Source: Candidatus Obscuribacteraceae bacterium
GTDB lineage: Bacteria; Cyanobacteriota; Vampirovibrionia; Obscuribacterales; Obscuribacteraceae
DNA: 64,000 nucleotides
Direction of reading: 5' to 3'
NCBI GenBank assembly: GCA_044226015.1
Contig: JBGAHS010000002.1
Location: 352,001 to 416,000, forward strand
The first letter of the stretch is position 1. Every line of letters begins with the position of its first letter. A model generated the notes under the pieces. The model was not told the DNA's origin and did not search any database. It saw nothing but the letters and a program-made list of their open reading frames with translations. Below are positions 46,887-55,059 of the stretch, piece after piece. The position numbers were made by a program, and so were the translations under genes.

Positions 46887-47324
46887 CTAACTTGCTCTTG
46901 TAAGAGATTTTGGGGCAGCGCTTTTTGCTGGCACCAAAGATTGCACTCGAGCCGGCACAGCTGAGTATATGGCGTTTCCGCAGGAGGCAGCAGAAAATAA
47001 TGCAGCTCTAGTAATTTTGAGAATGTCGATAACTCGATTAATCACAATCGAATCGTACTGAGTGTGATCATCAATAAGCACACCGTCAACGCCTTCCTGT
47101 TCCGCAAAATGCGCAACTGCCGATTGCAAAGGCACAGTAAGCGGTTCTGACCAATGCACAACTTGAACTTGATTAGAATAGCTTTTCAGCCATTTCTGCA
47201 TTTTTTTCTTGTCTTCTGCACTATAAACAAGTGCAATTAGCTTCAACTTTTTCATTTCAAATACAACCATAAATTCATATCCAATTCTTCGCAATTTTGC
47301 AATTCTCGAAAGACGATCTGCCAT
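46887..47324 (-). CDS. Hypothetical protein coupled to argH
   Basis: ATG overlaps the argH stop (TAATG). 145 aa. Confidence 0.55.
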   Translation of the reverse strand: MADRLSRIAKLRRIGYEFMVVFEMKKLKLIALVYSAEDKKKMQKWLKSYSNQVQVVHWSEPLTVPLQSAVAHFAEQEGVDGVLIDDHTQYDSIVINRVIDILKITRAALFSAASCGNAIYSAVPARVQSLVPAKSAAPKSLTRAS

Positions 47325-48715
47325 TAGCTACAAACATCAGAATTCAATTGCAGCTGGTTCTTGCATTTAGCAAGCGCAGAAATTACACAATCCTTCCCGG
47401 TGCTTCCTGGGGATTGCTTGCTCGACACTGAAAGATGAGGATCAAACAAATCGAACACGTCGTTCTCGAACTTATCGGAAAACTGCTTGAACTCCGACAG
47501 AGACAGATCACTCAGGGCTTTTGAATTTTCCCTGCTGTAGTTTACGAGTTCAGAAACCGCCTCGTGAGCGACTCGGAATGCAACACCAGCTTTCACCAGG
47601 TATTCTGCAATATCCGTAGCCGCAAGAAAGGGATCCATTGCTGCCTTTTCCATCGTGGCTTTCTGAACATTCATTGAATTTATGACTACAACCATAACTT
47701 TCAATGACCCTAGAAGGGTGCTTGCTGCATCAATCACCGTGGGTTTTACTTCCTGGAGGTCTCTGTTGTAGCCGAGGGGAAGTGCCTTCAACGTTATCAA
47801 TGCATTTACTAGATTTCCGATGATCGAACCTGTTTTTCCTCGAACCAATTCAACCGGGTCGGGGTTCTTTTTGTTAGGCATCAAGCTCGAAGCAGTAGTT
47901 ACATTATCGTTAAAACCAACGAAGGAAAACTCTGAACTCGCCCAAATTATCAGTGTTTCGGCAAGCTGCGAAAGATGGGTTGAAGTGATGCATGCTGCAG
48001 AAAGAAACTCAAGTGCGAAGTCACGATCGCTGACCGCATCAAGTGAATTCTTGAATTCTTCGCTGAAACCTAGCAATGAAGAGGTCAAGCTGGGAATCAC
48101 CGGCAAGGCGGTTCCAGCAAGCGCTGCCGCACCTAATGGCGACACAGATACTCTTTTTTTGCAATCATTGAACCGGTCAAAATCTCTGTTCAACATCTCA
48201 ATGAATGCGTGCATTGCATGCGAAAAGAGAACTGGCTGAGCGCGCTGCAAATGTGTGTATCCCGGCATCACAGCATCAATATTCTCTTGAGCGCAATTCA
48301 GCAGAGCTGTTTGAAGTGAAACAATTTGTTTTTTCACCTCAGCTATCTTGCTGGCAGTATAGAGCCTGGTATCGAGAGCGACCTGGTCGTTCCGACTTCT
48401 AGCCGTATGCAGCCTAGCAGCGGCTGAACCAATTTTTGCTTCTAACTGTTTCTCGACGTTCATATGCACGTCTTCATACTCTGCAATTAGTTGCAATTTG
48501 CCAGAAGAATATTCGAGAGCAAGCTCTTTCAATCCCGAAGAAATTGCTTCGAATTCTTCAGTAGTTATCAGTCCTGCTTCACTGAGCATTTCAGCATGCG
48601 CCAGACTGCCTTTGATGTCTGATTGAATCAATTCAATGTCAGCATCAATAGAGTTGACAAACTGCGAGACTGCAGAATCAAGCTCCTGCTTGAACGCTTT
48701 TCTTAATACTTTCAT
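47324..48715 (-). CDS. argH: Argininosuccinate lyase
   Basis: EDVHMNVE, LHTARSRNDQ, MPGYTHLQRAQP and SSLMPNKKNPD. Start placed at MKVLRK, overlapping the end of argG. Confidence 0.95.
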   Translation of the reverse strand: MKVLRKAFKQELDSAVSQFVNSIDADIELIQSDIKGSLAHAEMLSEAGLITTEEFEAISSGLKELALEYSSGKLQLIAEYEDVHMNVEKQLEAKIGSAAARLHTARSRNDQVALDTRLYTASKIAEVKKQIVSLQTALLNCAQENIDAVMPGYTHLQRAQPVLFSHAMHAFIEMLNRDFDRFNDCKKRVSVSPLGAAALAGTALPVIPSLTSSLLGFSEEFKNSLDAVSDRDFALEFLSAACITSTHLSQLAETLIIWASSEFSFVGFNDNVTTASSLMPNKKNPDPVELVRGKTGSIIGNLVNALITLKALPLGYNRDLQEVKPTVIDAASTLLGSLKVMVVVINSMNVQKATMEKAAMDPFLAATDIAEYLVKAGVAFRVAHEAVSELVNYSRENSKALSDLSLSEFKQFSDKFENDVFDLFDPHLSVSSKQSPGSTGKDCVISALAKCKNQLQLNSDVCS

Positions 48716-49898
48716 GGGTCTTGCTCCAATTTGATAGTCTGATTGCATTGATGTTGATAAAACCGCCTGAGTCAGCAGGCGAGAAAGCCGTCATATCATC
48801 GAAGCTCGAGAGTTTATGAGCGTATAGAGATTTCTCAGCCTTTCTTCCAACAACTGAAGAATGCCCTTTGTAGAGTTTCACTTTGGCAGTTCCAGTCACG
48901 GGTGCTTGTATCTCATTTATTGTTGCTTTGAGAATTTTTGCTTCCGGAGCAAACCAATATCCGTTATATACAAGTGAAGCGAACTTGAGAGCAAGCTCTT
49001 GCGCCCAATGCGCTACTTCCTTGTCTAGAGTCAGTGACTCAACAGCCTGATGAGCTTGCATCAAGACCGTTACGCCAGGTGTCTCATACACGCCCCTGGA
49101 CTTGATACCGATATACCGGTTCTCGACCAGATCAACTCTGCCTACGCCGTGTTCAGCAGCAATCTTGTTCATGCTTTCGACAAGAGTTAACGCATCCATT
49201 TTCTTGCCGTTGATGGCAACAGGAATGCCGCATTCAAAATCAATGCTTACGGTTTCTGCCTTGTCTGGAGCGTTTTCCGGTGAATTGGTCCAGAGGTAAA
49301 TGTCCTCTGGAGCCTCTGCCCATGGATCTTCCAAAATGCCACCCTCATAACTGATGTGCATCAAGTTCGCATCCATAGAGTAGGGCTTGTCCTTACTTAT
49401 AGGAAGAGGTATGCCATGCTTTTCAGCGTAGTCGAAGAGGTCTTGCCTGCCATTGAAGGACCAAGATCTCCAGGGAGCTATAATCTCAAGTTGTGGTGCA
49501 AGTGACTTCACCGCAAACTCGAATCGCACCTGATCATTGCCCTTCCCCGTAGCACCATGAGCAATGGCATCACAGCCTTCTTTCAAAGCAGCTTCAACCA
49601 TTCCTGCAGCGATACAAGGTCTTGCAAGAGATGTGCCCATCAAATATACAGACTCATAGAACGCATCGGCTTTGATTGACTCGAAAATAAACTCTTCGAC
49701 GAATTGTTTTTTCAAATCAGCTACGATGCACTTTTCAGCGCCAGTAGCCAGAGCTTTGACTTTTACAGCCTCAAAATCCTCTTTCTGCCCTACATCGGCA
49801 CAATAAGCGACCACGGGTACGTTGTAGGTTTCTTTCAACCAGGTCAAAATCACTGAGGTATCAAGACCACCGCTATATGCTAACAATATTTTTTTCAT
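48678..49898 (-). CDS. argG: Argininosuccinate synthase
   Basis: LAYSGGLDTS, HGATGKGNDQVRFE and KSRGVYETPG. Confidence 0.97.
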   Translation of the reverse strand: MKKILLAYSGGLDTSVILTWLKETYNVPVVAYCADVGQKEDFEAVKVKALATGAEKCIVADLKKQFVEEFIFESIKADAFYESVYLMGTSLARPCIAAGMVEAALKEGCDAIAHGATGKGNDQVRFEFAVKSLAPQLEIIAPWRSWSFNGRQDLFDYAEKHGIPLPISKDKPYSMDANLMHISYEGGILEDPWAEAPEDIYLWTNSPENAPDKAETVSIDFECGIPVAINGKKMDALTLVESMNKIAAEHGVGRVDLVENRYIGIKSRGVYETPGVTVLMQAHQAVESLTLDKEVAHWAQELALKFASLVYNGYWFAPEAKILKATINEIQAPVTGTAKVKLYKGHSSVVGRKAEKSLYAHKLSSFDDMTAFSPADSGGFININAIRLSNWSKTHESIKKSVQAGA

Positions 49899-49950: not shown

Positions 49951-50979
49951 TTAGAGAACAAGCGCGAGAATAGCTTTCTGTGCGTGCAGCCGATTTTCTG
50001 CTTGATCAAACACCACTGACTGCGGTCCATCAATAACTTCATCGGTAATTTCATAGCCTCGGTGAGCTGGAAGGCAGTGCATCACGATGGCTGCGGGAAA
50101 GGACTTTTTCAGTAACTCCGCATTGACTTGGAAATCAGCAAAAGCTTTGATTTTGGAGCTTGCTTCGGCTTCCTGCCCCATTGATACCCATGTGTCTGTG
50201 TAGATTACATCAGCATCAGCAGCGGCCTCAGCTGCGTCGTGCGTCAGAGTTAGCTTTCCGCCCCAACTTGCGGCTTCGGCTAGCGTCTGCTCCCATATGG
50301 CGGGGTCTGGCATGTACTGCTCTGGGCAAGCAATAACGCATTCGGCACCAAATTTGGTAGCAGCCAGAAACAAAGAGTTTGATACATTATTTGGATCACC
50401 GATATACGCAATTTTAAGTCCCTCCAGGCAATCAAAGTGCTCAATTATGGTCAAGAGATCCGCAAGTGCCTGGCAAGGATGTTCGGCATCGCTCAAGCCA
50501 TTAATTACTGGGATTTTTGCATTCTCTGCCAGCTTTTCAACGGTTTCCTGCAAGAAGGTTCTTGCCATAATTCCGCTGACCCATCTTTCCAGGTTATGTG
50601 CAACATCAGCTATAGACTCTCTCACGCCGAGAGGACCATCCAAAAATATTGCATGACCGCCAAGCTGCTTCATACCGAGGTCAAAAGTGACTCTAGTTCT
50701 TAACGATGGCTTTTCAAAAAGCATAGCGAGTGACTTATTTTTGCACAGAAGTGATTGCGCATCATCATTGACGTGCTGCTTCAAGAGAGCAGCAGTATCC
50801 AGGAGAAGCTGAATCTCGGCTTTGCTCAGCCCCTCTATGCCCAGAATATCTTTTCCGCGCAGCGAGTCTTCATCCAGGATTTTTAGAAGCGGCGAGATTA
50901 CAGCTGCTTTCAATACAGCTTCCTTCGCTGGGCTCTTAGCCTTGTGATTCTGAACCTTTGCTGCGGATTTCATTTTCAT
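49951..50979 (-). CDS. argF: Ornithine carbamoyltransferase
   Basis: FEKPSLRTR, HPCQALAD, TDTWVSMG, MHCLP and QAENRLH. Confidence 0.96.
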   Translation of the reverse strand: MKMKSAAKVQNHKAKSPAKEAVLKAAVISPLLKILDEDSLRGKDILGIEGLSKAEIQLLLDTAALLKQHVNDDAQSLLCKNKSLAMLFEKPSLRTRVTFDLGMKQLGGHAIFLDGPLGVRESIADVAHNLERWVSGIMARTFLQETVEKLAENAKIPVINGLSDAEHPCQALADLLTIIEHFDCLEGLKIAYIGDPNNVSNSLFLAATKFGAECVIACPEQYMPDPAIWEQTLAEAASWGGKLTLTHDAAEAAADADVIYTDTWVSMGQEAEASSKIKAFADFQVNAELLKKSFPAAIVMHCLPAHRGYEITDEVIDGPQSVVFDQAENRLHAQKAILALVL

Positions 50980-51020
50980 TCTCCAGTCATTCGAATTTGT
51001 ACTTGTTTGAATTTAGATTT

Positions 51021-51093
51021 CACACCCCGCAGGAGTTGAACCTGCAACCTTCGGTTCCGTAGACCGTCGCTCTATCCATTGAGCTAGGAGTGT
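51021..51093 (-). tRNA. tRNA-Arg (anticodon ACG), CCA not encoded
   Basis: Minus strand ACACTCC TA GCTC AATGGATA GAGC G ACGGT CTACGGA ACCGA AGGTT GCAGG TTCAACT CCTGC GGGGTGT G folds into a full cloverleaf. The Arg identity element A20 is present. Confidence 0.93.
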
Positions 51094-51099
51094 ATAAAC

Positions 51100-51133: not shown

Positions 51134-52042
51134 TTAAAGCTTCTTGTTGAATATTTGACAATCAGAGCCAGTCTTGCAGGAAATGGTTGTTCCGATTGTT
51201 TGTGTTGTTATAGCTTTGAGCAAGGCGTGTTCGGTATGTCCGTCAATAATTTGTGCAGCAGAAATCCCCATATTCACTGCATCTATACAGCTTTTGATTT
51301 TCGGAAGCATTCCACCTTTGATGGTACCATCGGCGATTTTGGCTTCAGCTTCGTCAACGTTCAGGTTTTTGATCAAAGTATTCTTCTCCGAAATGTCCTC
51401 AAGAACACCAGGAACATCGGTGATATTGATCAGCTTGGTAGCGCCAATTGCAGCAGCTAATTCCAGAGCTGCCGTATCGGCATTGATATTCAATACGCTG
51501 CCCGTTTCATTAAGAGCAAGCGGAGCAATCACGGGCACGGCGCCTTTCAAGAATGCTTCTTTTATTTTCGCAACGTTCACGCCGTTGACTTTACCAACGA
51601 AACCGAGGTCAAGTTCCTTTCCTGATGCATCGCTTGCGGTAAGCTTGCTAGCCGAGAAAATGGCGCTGGTATTTGGTATGAATTCTGTGGCGAAAACAGT
51701 TGATTCAAGCGGGACATAGCCAACGGCAGGAACCGAAACCAGCGAAATCTTCTCAACAATAAGCTGGTTAATTTCCGTAAGTTCTTCAACAACAATCTGT
51801 AGGGTTTCTTTATCAGTGACTCTGAGTCCTTGAATTTTGACAGGAACCTTGTTGAGCGCTGCAAGCTTCTGGTCAATGGCGGGACCACCGCCATGAACGA
51901 TTGCCAGAGAGAGACCAGCTTTCACTAGCTCTTTTGCATCTGCAAGCAAATTTTCTAGCAGCCCTTCAGTTTCGATGACGCTGCCACCAATTTTGACGAC
52001 TACGATTGTTCCAGTAAGATTGATTGTCTCGGCGGTATTCAT
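51134..52042 (-). CDS. argB: Acetylglutamate kinase
   Basis: VVKIGGS, VHGGGP, GLRVTD, NINADTAA and GGMLPK. Confidence 0.95.
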   Translation of the reverse strand: MNTAETINLTGTIVVVKIGGSVIETEGLLENLLADAKELVKAGLSLAIVHGGGPAIDQKLAALNKVPVKIQGLRVTDKETLQIVVEELTEINQLIVEKISLVSVPAVGYVPLESTVFATEFIPNTSAIFSASKLTASDASGKELDLGFVGKVNGVNVAKIKEAFLKGAVPVIAPLALNETGSVLNINADTAALELAAAIGATKLINITDVPGVLEDISEKNTLIKNLNVDEAEAKIADGTIKGGMLPKIKSCIDAVNMGISAAQIIDGHTEHALLKAITTQTIGTTISCKTGSDCQIFNKKL

Positions 52043-52156: not shown

Positions 52157-53380
52157 CTATGTACGATAAGCTCCATTGATTCTTACGTAATCGTAAGAGA
52201 GGTCACAGCCCCAGGCTGTTGCCTTAGAAAGTCCATCATGCAAATCAATCAATACTTGAATGTTTGATTTCTTCATCACTTTAAGTGCATGCGATTCATC
52301 GAACTTGCAGGGCTCACCGCCTTTGAGAAGCGGCACCACATTACCACTACTTGAAAGCGCAACAGAGACCTTTGCGGGGTCGAACCAGACACCGCCATAG
52401 CCCAGAGCTGCGACAATTCTGCCCCAGTTTGCGTCTTCACCAAACATCGCTGTCTTCACCAGGTTAGATGAAACAACAGATTTTGAGAGCTTGGAAGCAT
52501 CTTCAAATGACTTGCTTCCCTTTACAGTGACAGCTAAAAGTTTGGTAGCACCTTCGCCATCTTTTGCAATGCATTTTGCAAGAAAGACGTTGATAGCGCC
52601 AAGTGCTTTCACAAACAATTTCCATTCTTTGCTGCCTTCAACTACTGGTGCAGTTTCAGCAGCGCCATTAGCCATGATTGCCACCATGTCGTTTGTGCTC
52701 GTGTCACCATCAACTGAAATCATGTTGTAGGTTTTTTGCACGCTAACAATCAATGCCTTTTTCAAAAGTTCCTTTGAAATGTTTAGATCTGTGAGAATGA
52801 AAGAGAGCATGGTCGCCATGTTGGGATGAATCATTCCCGAGCCCTTTGCCATAGCAGCTATGGTCACGACCTTCTCTCCAACATTGAACTCCACAGAACA
52901 ATGCTTGATAAAAGTATCGGTCGTCATAATTGCGGTTGCTGCGTTCACACCGGCTTCATCGCTATGAGCAATTTTTGGTGCCAGGAATTCAATGCCGGCT
53001 TCGACTTTCTCGATGGGCATCGGAACACCTATAACACCTGTCGACGCGATGAGAATCTCGCCGGGGTCGGCGTTGAGGCAAGCAGCGGTTTTTGTAGCCA
53101 TTCTCCAGGTGTGTTCAACGCCCGTCGCACCGGTACATGAATTAGCGTTTCCACTATTGATGACAATCGCTTTGATCTTCTTTCCGCTAGCGTCAACCTT
53201 TTGGTTCCACATAATTGGAGCAGCTTTAACAACATTCGTTGTGAGAGCGACAGCAAAATCAGCCGGAACATCGCTGACGATAAGCGCGAGGTCCTTTCTT
53301 TTTCTCTTCAAACCAACGTGCTCTCCAGCAGCCTGGAAGCCCTTTGGCATTTGAAACTCTTTTGAAACTTTCACTGTCAT
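52157..53380 (-). CDS. argJ: Ornithine acetyltransferase / N-acetylglutamate synthase
   Basis: NSGNANSCTG, STGVIG, AKGSGMIHPNMATML, DGDTSTND and DGEGATK. Start placed at ATG 53380 after GGAG; the longer ORF to 53458 runs through the terminator. Confidence 0.95.
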   Translation of the reverse strand: MTVKVSKEFQMPKGFQAAGEHVGLKRKRKDLALIVSDVPADFAVALTTNVVKAAPIMWNQKVDASGKKIKAIVINSGNANSCTGATGVEHTWRMATKTAACLNADPGEILIASTGVIGVPMPIEKVEAGIEFLAPKIAHSDEAGVNAATAIMTTDTFIKHCSVEFNVGEKVVTIAAMAKGSGMIHPNMATMLSFILTDLNISKELLKKALIVSVQKTYNMISVDGDTSTNDMVAIMANGAAETAPVVEGSKEWKLFVKALGAINVFLAKCIAKDGEGATKLLAVTVKGSKSFEDASKLSKSVVSSNLVKTAMFGEDANWGRIVAALGYGGVWFDPAKVSVALSSSGNVVPLLKGGEPCKFDESHALKVMKKSNIQVLIDLHDGLSKATAWGCDLSYDYVRINGAYRT

Positions 53381-53402
53381 CACCCGCATCTCCAAAAGTT
53401 CA

Positions 53403-53437
53403 GAAATAAAAAACCCCGATCCTTCTGGACTCGGGGC
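53403..53437 (-). terminator. Attenuator terminator (segments 3:4)
   Basis: Minus strand GCCCCG(A)GTCC-AGAA-GGATCGGGGT followed by TTTTTATTTC, about 25 nt before the argJ start. Confidence 0.88.
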
Positions 53438-53478
53438 TGGAATGCGTAAATGATGCAAGCCTTTATTGCCCCGAGTCC
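53427..53478 (-). promoter_or_regulatory. Attenuator antiterminator (segments 2:3)
   Basis: GGACTCGGGGC (53478-53468, inside the leader ORF) is the perfect 11-nt complement of GCCCCGAGTCC (53437-53427), the 5' arm of the terminator. Confidence 0.85.
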
Positions 53479-53537
53479 TTCATACGAACGCGGCGGCTAC
53501 GGCGGTTTGTGTTGGCGATGTAACTAACAGATTTCAT
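53463..53537 (-). CDS. Putative arg operon leader peptide MKSVSYIANTNRRSRRVRMKDSGQ
   Basis: 24 codons plus TAA. Codons 12-18 are CGC CGT AGC CGC CGC GTT CGT. Lies between the promoter and the terminator. SD sequence is weak. Confidence 0.8.
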   Translation of the reverse strand: MKSVSYIANTNRRSRRVRMKDSGQ

Positions 53538-53568
53538 TTTTTGTGCCCACACTGACAAGATGAATTAA

Positions 53569-53598
53569 ACCATACACCTTGGAAATCGGATCCGTCAA
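53569..53598 (-). promoter_or_regulatory. Sigma70-type promoter of the arg leader/operon
   Basis: TTGACG-N18-TATGGT on the minus strand, about 30 nt upstream of the leader ATG. Confidence 0.6.
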
Positions 53599-53964: not shown

Positions 53965-55059
53965 TTGAGCACTAATTCGGATGGAATCAAAGTGAAGAGT
54001 TCTGAAAAACTGAGGATTGGAATCGTCGGAGCGACCGGCTACACAGGCGTGGAGCTACTCCGTTTATTGTCCAGACATCCTCACGTGAGTATAGAAGGAT
54101 TGACTACCCGTACGGCAGCAGGCAAAGAAATTGCTCATATATTCCCTTCGCTGAAAAAAGTTTGTTCAACGACATGCTCAGATGAGAGTCTTGATGAGCT
54201 AAGTAAGAGAACAGACCTTGTATTCATAGCCCTTCCACATGGCGAAGCAGCCAATATGGTGACTTCGGACATACTAAACCGCTGCAAAATAATTGACCTC
54301 GGTGCTGACTTCAGGCTTGAGGATCCCTTAGATTACAAAAAGTGGTATCACTTAGACCATCCGAATCCACTCATGATCACCGAGGCAGTATACGGCTTGC
54401 CAGAGTTCAATAGGGAGAAGATTCGCAATGCACGATTGATTGCTAACCCAGGTTGCTATGCGACGTGCAGTATTCTATCTCTTGCTCCGCTTCTAAAAAA
54501 TTCCCTGATCGATGAAGACTCGATCATAGTAGATGCAAAATCTGGTGTTTCAGGAGCTGGAAGAGGACTTTCGCTGGTATCACATTTCAATGAGTGTAAT
54601 GAAAGCTTCAAGGCATATGCTGTAGCATCACACCGACACACGCCTGAGATAGAGCAAGCTTTGAAACAAGAAACAGGAGTAGCTACTACGCTAAGTTTCA
54701 CACCGCATTTAGTGCCAATGGATCGAGGCATTCTAGTGACGGCATATGCAAAACTGAGAAAAGGAATTCGATTCGAGGAATTGCAAGAGGCTTATGCAGA
54801 TTCATATAGAGATGAGCATTTCATCCGCATTTATGACAGCGCCGCAGAGCCGACTGTGCTGCCCGAAACAAGATGGGTGAGAGGAAGTAATTTTTGTGAC
54901 ATCTTCTACAAAATAGATGAACGCACTAATCGTGTAATAGTAGTTGCTACTATAGACAACTTGGTAAAAGGAGCAGCTGGTCAAGCGATTCAAAACATGA
55001 ATTTGATGAGTTCTTTTGATGAGAGACTGGCGTTGGAAGAAGCGGGATTTTTTCCATAA
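53965..55059 (+). CDS. argC: N-acetyl-gamma-glutamyl-phosphate reductase
   Basis: IVGATGYTG, IANPGCYAT, SGVSGAG, HRHTPEI and DNLVKGAAGQA. Exact start uncertain. Confidence 0.96.
   Translation: MSTNSDGIKVKSSEKLRIGIVGATGYTGVELLRLLSRHPHVSIEGLTTRTAAGKEIAHIFPSLKKVCSTTCSDESLDELSKRTDLVFIALPHGEAANMVTSDILNRCKIIDLGADFRLEDPLDYKKWYHLDHPNPLMITEAVYGLPEFNREKIRNARLIANPGCYATCSILSLAPLLKNSLIDEDSIIVDAKSGVSGAGRGLSLVSHFNECNESFKAYAVASHRHTPEIEQALKQETGVATTLSFTPHLVPMDRGILVTAYAKLRKGIRFEELQEAYADSYRDEHFIRIYDSAAEPTVLPETRWVRGSNFCDIFYKIDERTNRVIVVATIDNLVKGAAGQAIQNMNLMSSFDERLALEEAGFFP

Follow-up and report, generated by a model that had tools for sequence, protein, structure and literature searches.

The window analysed here is a 64,000-nt stretch of the genome of a Candidatus Obscuribacteraceae bacterium, presumably a non-photosynthetic member of the Cyanobacteriota, and within it lies an arginine biosynthesis operon on the minus strand, in which a short leader is followed by argJ, argB, a tRNA-Arg gene, argF, argG and argH, in that order. 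The genes and the elements of the leader are as follows:

47324..48748, minus strand: argH (TIGR00838)
48678..49898, minus strand: argG (TIGR00032)
49951..50979, minus strand: argF (TIGR00658)
51020..51094, minus strand: tRNA-Arg(ACG), between argB and argF
51134..52042, minus strand: argB (TIGR00761)
52157..53380, minus strand: argJ (TIGR00120, above cut-off), the first gene after the leader
53404..53413, minus strand: U tract TTTTTTATTT, part of the intrinsic terminator
53413..53422, minus strand: segment 4 GGATCGGGGT, the 3' arm of the terminator, with a one-base bulge
53427..53437, minus strand: segment 3 GCCCCGAGTCC, the exact complement of segment 2, common to helices 2:3 and 3:4
53468..53478, minus strand: segment 2 GGACTCGGGGC, within the final codons of the leader ORF
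53486..53497, minus strand: segment 1, which pairs with segment 2 and lies over the Arg codons
53484..53504, minus strand: control codons R12-R18, five Arg in seven codons (CGC CGT. CGC CGC. CGT)
53463..53537, minus strand: leader ORF of 24 codons, MKSVSYIANTNRRSRRVRMKDSGQ and a stop, with counterparts in 38 family leaders
53569..53574, minus strand: predicted -10 box TATGGT
53593..53598, minus strand: predicted -35 box TTGACG, a box match whose pattern recurs upstream of family leaders
53965..55059, plus strand: argC, divergent from the argJ operon

Translation of argJ could begin at ATG 53380 or GTG 53383, with a GGAG at 53393-53390, and the best named relative of its product (59% identity) is titled Candidatus Melainabacteria. 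The argC gene is inverted with respect to three congeners, in which it occupies the same strand upstream of argJ; the gap between argC and argJ holds a 57-codon ORF on the plus strand, and directly 3' of argH there is a 145-aa ORF (46887-47324, minus strand) that has no NCBIfam match and is kept after argH in two relatives (G006 and G007). The tRNA-Arg(ACG) gene, a divergent-looking one among the genome's three ACG tRNAs, stands 40 nt past argB and 41 nt ahead of argF, apparently within the attenuated operon; it is present in G002 and absent from G006 and G007. Its anticodon class reads the control codons of the leader, and read-through would increase the tRNA class that the leader is predicted to sense.

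The promoter, the 24-codon Arg-rich ORF, segments 2, 3 and 4 and the U tract all lie on the minus strand at the places given in the original prediction. With an 18-nt spacer between TTGACG and TATGGT, transcription would start near 53562. Taken alone this promoter is at chance level (one match found against 1.4 expected); as an element that the prediction had set upstream of the ORF it proves to be conserved, with TTGAC(A/G)-N17/18-TAnnnT recurring upstream of 35 of the 38 family leaders against 1.07 expected. Arginine occupies codons 12, 13, 15, 16 and 18 of the ORF, and five Arg in seven codons was matched by 33 of 20,000 base shuffles of that ORF: the cluster is beyond chance. An NCBIfam search with the leader peptide gave no match. 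No canonical Shine-Dalgarno 4-mer is found at the window leader ORF, and folding suggests that its start is perhaps masked by an upstream hairpin; such 4-mers occur at 24 of the 38 family leaders, where 4.5 would be expected.

An intrinsic terminator, made up of a hairpin and the U tract, stands between the leader ORF and argJ. The exact 11-nt complementarity of segments 2 and 3 is as originally described, as is the mutual exclusion of the two helices: folding of the window leader gives -26.1 kcal/mol for the antiterminator 2:3 and -15.6 kcal/mol for the terminator 3:4, the 5' arm of the terminator being common to both. Folding further predicts a 1:2 hairpin of the anti-antiterminator or pause type (-13.2 kcal/mol), an element absent from the original prediction. 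The bulge in the terminator, where segment 4 is without a C that relatives have, recurs in assemblies X1, X2 (possibly the source) and X8, and a simple terminator scan did not pick up this terminator. Among 117 leader-like candidates taken from 1,226 terminator-like sites over the whole genome, the antiterminator duplex of the window site was the strongest (-27.2 versus -18.0 for the runner-up); folding of the whole leader was no better than that of its shuffles (z -0.95). A 240-nt contig from metatranscriptome run X8 matches 53298-53537 exactly and crosses the terminator; since it shows no ends, strand or level and could reflect DNA carry-over, it was left out of the evidence.

The effect of a translating ribosome was modelled by folding the leader with bases blocked to 12, 13 or 15 nt beyond the start of the P site. 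In the ribosome-free state the ensemble of the window leader is mixed (0.41 terminator, 0.59 antiterminator), and it stays mixed for ribosome positions up to codon 11. From R12 to V17 or R18 the model predicts near-complete antitermination, and from K20 to the stop complete termination: with the 13-nt footprint the terminator probability is 0.00-0.25 at R12-R18 and 1.00 at the stop, and with the 15-nt footprint R18 drops out of the permissive zone. Footprint folding therefore reproduces the switch that had been proposed, with antitermination predicted for a ribosome on the Arg codons and termination for one at the stop. The stall had been placed at R12-R13, and these positions are permissive in the model; the zone is not confined to them and spans R12-R18, coinciding with the control codons.

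At full equilibrium 21 of the 38 family leaders switch, and in the others the antiterminator would need to win kinetically. Before segment 4 has been made, helix 2:3 forms with the ribosome over the Arg codons and is blocked with the ribosome at the stop in all 38 leaders, a co-transcriptional result that is partly built in because segment 2 lies within the ORF. Over the last seven permissive positions 138 of 266 codons encode arginine, as against 71 of 900 elsewhere, and in 36 distinct ORFs the Arg codons number 197 when read in the ORF frame and 100 and 66 in the other two. Of those 197, 177 are CGC, CGA or CGT (60.8% in the long ORFs of the genome), a bias that indicates tRNA-Arg(ICG) as the sensor and to which the pairing needs of the 1:2 helix may contribute. 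As to the host itself, 22 of 262 gene-end terminators lie within 12 nt of a stop codon (median 27), with a sharp peak 18-30 nt past the stop (121 of 262), in a genome where Rho was not found. Terminators that keep away from stops have been read as a mark of transcription-translation coupling, the runaway pattern of Bacillus subtilis being different (available part of PMC7858274); the avoidance of stop codons by gene-end terminators, which is an indirect proxy, makes coupling in the host plausible.

Conservation was assessed over 104 genomes of the family. The gene argJ was found in 52 of them, and the leader lies ahead of it at 35 of the 52 loci, where, as anticipated, the ORF, the Arg cluster and the stems are all kept: each of the 35 has a short ORF with an Arg cluster, a terminator 21-34 nt past the stop and the core CTCGGGG / CCCCGAG, and start codon, open frame and stop spacing are retained throughout despite indels. 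At the remaining 17 loci argC abuts argJ (15) or a contig edge intervenes (2). Twelve of the 15 genomes with adjoining argC and argJ carry ArgR, and in these twelve no leader was detected by the RNA model, nor in the upstream stretches of ten of them; in the three without ArgR a leader heads the operon, standing before argF (two) or argC (one). At argJ loci in other families of the class (L015-L030) no such leader was found within 450 nt. The Arg cluster is all that the leader peptides of the family have in common: they range from 24 to 41 residues, the other residues and the N-terminal length vary freely, and the frame of segment 2 differs, encoding SG in some leaders and LG in others. Many have an N/S-rich stretch ahead of the Arg run, and in the contig of a related strain (run X4) R13 is apparently His.

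Both helices covary, as the prediction had envisaged. Across 34 distinct rows, helix 2:3 is 89.6% paired, with two-sided changes at 4 of 10 pairs, and helix 3:4 is 90.3% paired, with two-sided changes at 7 of 11; controls with slid partners are 21-53% paired. The covariation scores of both helices were reached by none of 500 shuffles, in controls that are inflated by kinship, and the count of covarying pairs in 2:3 was reached by 20 of 500. At one locus (L072) a single position is altered together in segments 2, 3 and 4.

A covariance model (R1) built from the 38 family leaders found 115 matches, distributed over 56 of the 104 family genomes. Of these, 77 were not part of the training set, and 37 of them, spread over the score range, were fetched together with their downstream genes, which were identified from Pfam matches and from tblastn searches with the window proteins. 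Thirty of the 37 stand directly before argF (15), argB (5), argG (5) or argC (5). The identity of the downstream gene is independent of model training; the Arg content of the matches (at least three Arg in eight codons in the ORF of 29 of the 30) is not, since the model was trained on the Arg-codon sequence. The seven without an arg gene are all weak (E 4e-5 or worse), and comprise a Thr-rich leader, a match at a DAHP synthase gene, one at ilvD, three that are unclear and one at a contig end. Two of them, a Val/Leu/Ile-rich leader before ilvD (L233, G084:C2) and the Thr-rich leader (L227, G017:C209), suggest that the family also has attenuators for branched-chain amino acids and Thr. In the source genome the model gives one copy, and no such leader was found at argC of the window. 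Across the phylum it matched 8 of 151 genomes, the source genome included; matches in the other seven were weak and mostly partial, with no arg gene match at the nine loci fetched, so that over these 151 genomes the leader was not found outside the family. Two full-length phylum matches proved on inspection to be ordinary gene-end terminators.

The source genome (8.2 Mb, 92% complete) yielded no match to ArgR (PF01316), to the T-box (RF00230) or to Rho (PF07497), in searches that matched 9, 5 and 9 of 14 control genomes respectively. At gathering scores Rfam returned nothing but the tRNA, and at E up to 10 five chance-level matches, so that no known RNA family was found for the leader. Across the family, all 35 argJ-bearing genomes without ArgR carry a leader, compared with 4 of the 17 that have ArgR, and leader and repressor occur together in 7 of 22 ArgR genomes; these counts overstate independence, as the genomes are kin (about 17 genera). 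The distribution of the leader in the family is largely complementary to that of ArgR, and the leader is mobile among arg genes. In one ArgR-bearing locus (L071 292-3066, G020:C291) an array of 17 tRNA genes closely precedes argR and the arg operon.

Arginine synthesis is a textbook repressor-controlled pathway, governed by ArgR/AhrC, with T-boxes in some Firmicutes. In fungi, the arginine attenuator peptide (arg-2/CPA1) is, as in the window leader, encoded by an upstream ORF that regulates an arginine-pathway gene; that system is eukaryotic, translational and dependent on peptide sequence, and its stall at high arginine represses. The closer comparison is with the classical leader-peptide attenuators trpL, hisL, leuL, thrL, ilvL (of ilvGMEDA and ilvBN) and pheL (as set out in the available part of PMC1183508): like them, the window leader has a short ORF with cognate codons, potential 1:2, 2:3 and 3:4 helices and a U-tract terminator before the cognate operon; unlike them, it concerns arginine, belongs to a non-photosynthetic lineage of Cyanobacteriota and largely alternates with ArgR. 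Arginine T-boxes of Firmicutes also let tRNA-Arg charging govern premature termination of arg genes (in the accessible text of PMC1262725), but T-boxes bind uncharged tRNA directly, whereas the window leader has an ORF instead and RF00230 is without a match in the genome. A T-box riboswitch was accordingly rejected, the stem I, specifier loop and T-box bulge of RF00230 not being found.

Our literature search for a bacterial arginine-biosynthesis leader-peptide attenuator found none, in line with the original prediction, which knew of no characterised example; an earlier prediction may yet exist in comparative studies beyond that search (Lopatovskaya 2010, Vitreschak 2004, Johnson 2020) or in subscription papers. 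The accessible portion of the PMC8632094 supplement contains no arg terms. A survey of Actinobacteria describes, in the part available, no conserved RNA element ahead of arginine operons, T-boxes being the RNA control that it gives as known (PMC1262725), and among the rows listed in the supplement of a genome-wide terminator screen (PMC2965389) a few argJ, argG, argF and argC genes are preceded by candidate premature terminators, with no leader-peptide annotation. According to the available text of a 2016 paper, reliable data on attenuation in cyanobacteria are absent (PMC4833913). Textbook though the mechanism is, it departs from the familiar in its amino acid, its phylum and its trade-off with ArgR.

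From conservation and sequence, the window leader is real and conserved, and is very likely functional; every sequence-level feature of a classical attenuator that was tested was found in it. With considerable confidence, we interpret it as a classical ribosome-mediated attenuator that would sense Arg-tRNA ahead of argJ-argB-tRNA-argF-argG-argH, and we infer that the leader is translated, that pausing occurs and that the operon responds to arginine. Weighing against this reading are the weak ribosome-binding site of the window leader, the apparent His at R13 in a related strain and published look-alike leaders that were insensitive to their control codons (PMC1262725). RNA polymerase would start near 53562 and wait at the 1:2 hairpin for a ribosome to load at 53537. 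When Arg-tRNA is ample, the ribosome would reach the stop at 53465 and cover segment 2, leaving 3:4 to form and transcription to end at the U tract, at about 53408. With Arg-tRNA(ICG) in short supply, the ribosome would stall at R12-R18 and cover segment 1, freeing segment 2, such that 2:3 would form before segment 4 is made and the polymerase would read into argJ. In most members of the family that lack ArgR, the leader would be the main arginine control.

Three other explanations for the same arrangement were weighed. In one, free arginine or ornithine is sensed inside the ribosome tunnel by the leader peptide as it emerges, in the manner of SpeFL, TnaC or the fungal peptide, and the resulting arrest, rather than a shortage of tRNA, sets the hairpin switch. 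The Salmonella speF leader (orf34/SpeFL) is the nearest precedent, being a bacterial leader ORF in which consecutive, conserved Arg codons sense arginine supply, and the N/S-rich stretch ahead of the Arg run in many family leaders fits such a model. SpeFL, however, controls ornithine decarboxylase and thereby polyamine synthesis, not arginine synthesis, and operates through Rho, ribosome-site occlusion, RNase G and a conserved peptide motif, where the window leader has an intrinsic terminator, no Rho found in the 92%-complete genome and no motif (available text of PMC6386406 for all points on SpeFL). Arg is the sole conserved residue among the leaders, C-terminal parts differ and the frame of segment 2 varies; moreover, arrest on free arginine would presumably activate a biosynthetic operon when arginine is plentiful, a response of the wrong sign given this geometry. 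We regard this reading as very improbable, and assignment to the SpeFL/TnaC arrest-peptide class was rejected on the lack of a conserved peptide beyond the Arg codons, the presence of an intrinsic terminator and the failure to find PF07497.

Slightly less probable again is that the ORF serves as a general sensor of translation speed or stress (slowdown, antibiotics, ppGpp), the Arg codons being kept only for the CGN triplets of the 1:2 hairpin. Segment 1 does overlap the Arg codons, and antibiotics trigger leaders of the Arg-Leu-Arg type (PMC8632094, in its accessible part), but the in-frame excess of Arg codons (197 against 100 and 66) comes with synonymous variation, four different arg genes follow the 30 of 37 new matches, and Val/Leu/Ile replace Arg in weak matches before ilvD. 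We give the least credence of all to hairpins switched by a protein or small molecule (TRAP- or PyrR-like, or a riboswitch), or forming a fixed leak, over an ORF that is not translated. Such a scheme would accommodate the weak ribosome-binding site of the window leader and its mixed ribosome-free ensemble, and it has a precedent in the look-alike leaders of Streptomyces ilvB, where mutation of the control codons was without effect (described in the available portion of PMC1262725). Against it, 35 of 35 argJ leaders retain the start, the frame and a spacing of 21-34 nt from stop to terminator, Shine-Dalgarno 4-mers are enriched more than would be expected across the family (24 of 38 against 4.5), and there is neither a match to an Rfam family nor any aptamer-like conserved loop.

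Returning to the Arg-tRNA-sensing attenuator, a broader joint reading, which we hold with moderate confidence, is that a true attenuator of this kind runs arginine biosynthesis in this Melainabacteria family; that its module has been copied before argJ, argC, argF, argG and argB and replaces ArgR lineage by lineage; and that it forms part of a wider network of Met, Phe, Tyr and branched-chain attenuation in Cyanobacteriota. If working, it would extend classical attenuation to arginine and to a phylum for which reliable attenuation data are described as absent (available text of PMC4833913). A family that includes ArgR-only, attenuator-only and dual genomes offers a natural experiment in repressor versus attenuator control, the codon bias towards tRNA-Arg(ICG) can serve to test the selective-charging theory of how control codons are chosen (as far as covered by the accessible part of PMC1183508), and the leader could be a ready genetic sensor of Arg-tRNA charging.

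Other leaders of the same design were observed in the source genome, which adds to the case for attenuation in the window. Near 258270 on the minus strand (G000:C7, L170), a Met-rich leader ORF (six Met in eight codons) with a terminator and an antiterminator precedes a cystathionine gamma-synthase-like (metB-like) gene and an aspartate kinase gene, and is a candidate methionine leader-peptide attenuator. A Phe-rich leader with five consecutive Phe and a terminator lies before a DAHP synthase gene near 286001 (minus strand; G000:C10, L171). Near 286779-287050 on the same strand (G000:C9, L174), two tandem Tyr-rich leader ORFs, each with its own terminator, precede a second DAHP synthase-like gene, and the first of these terminators closely resembles that of the Phe leader.
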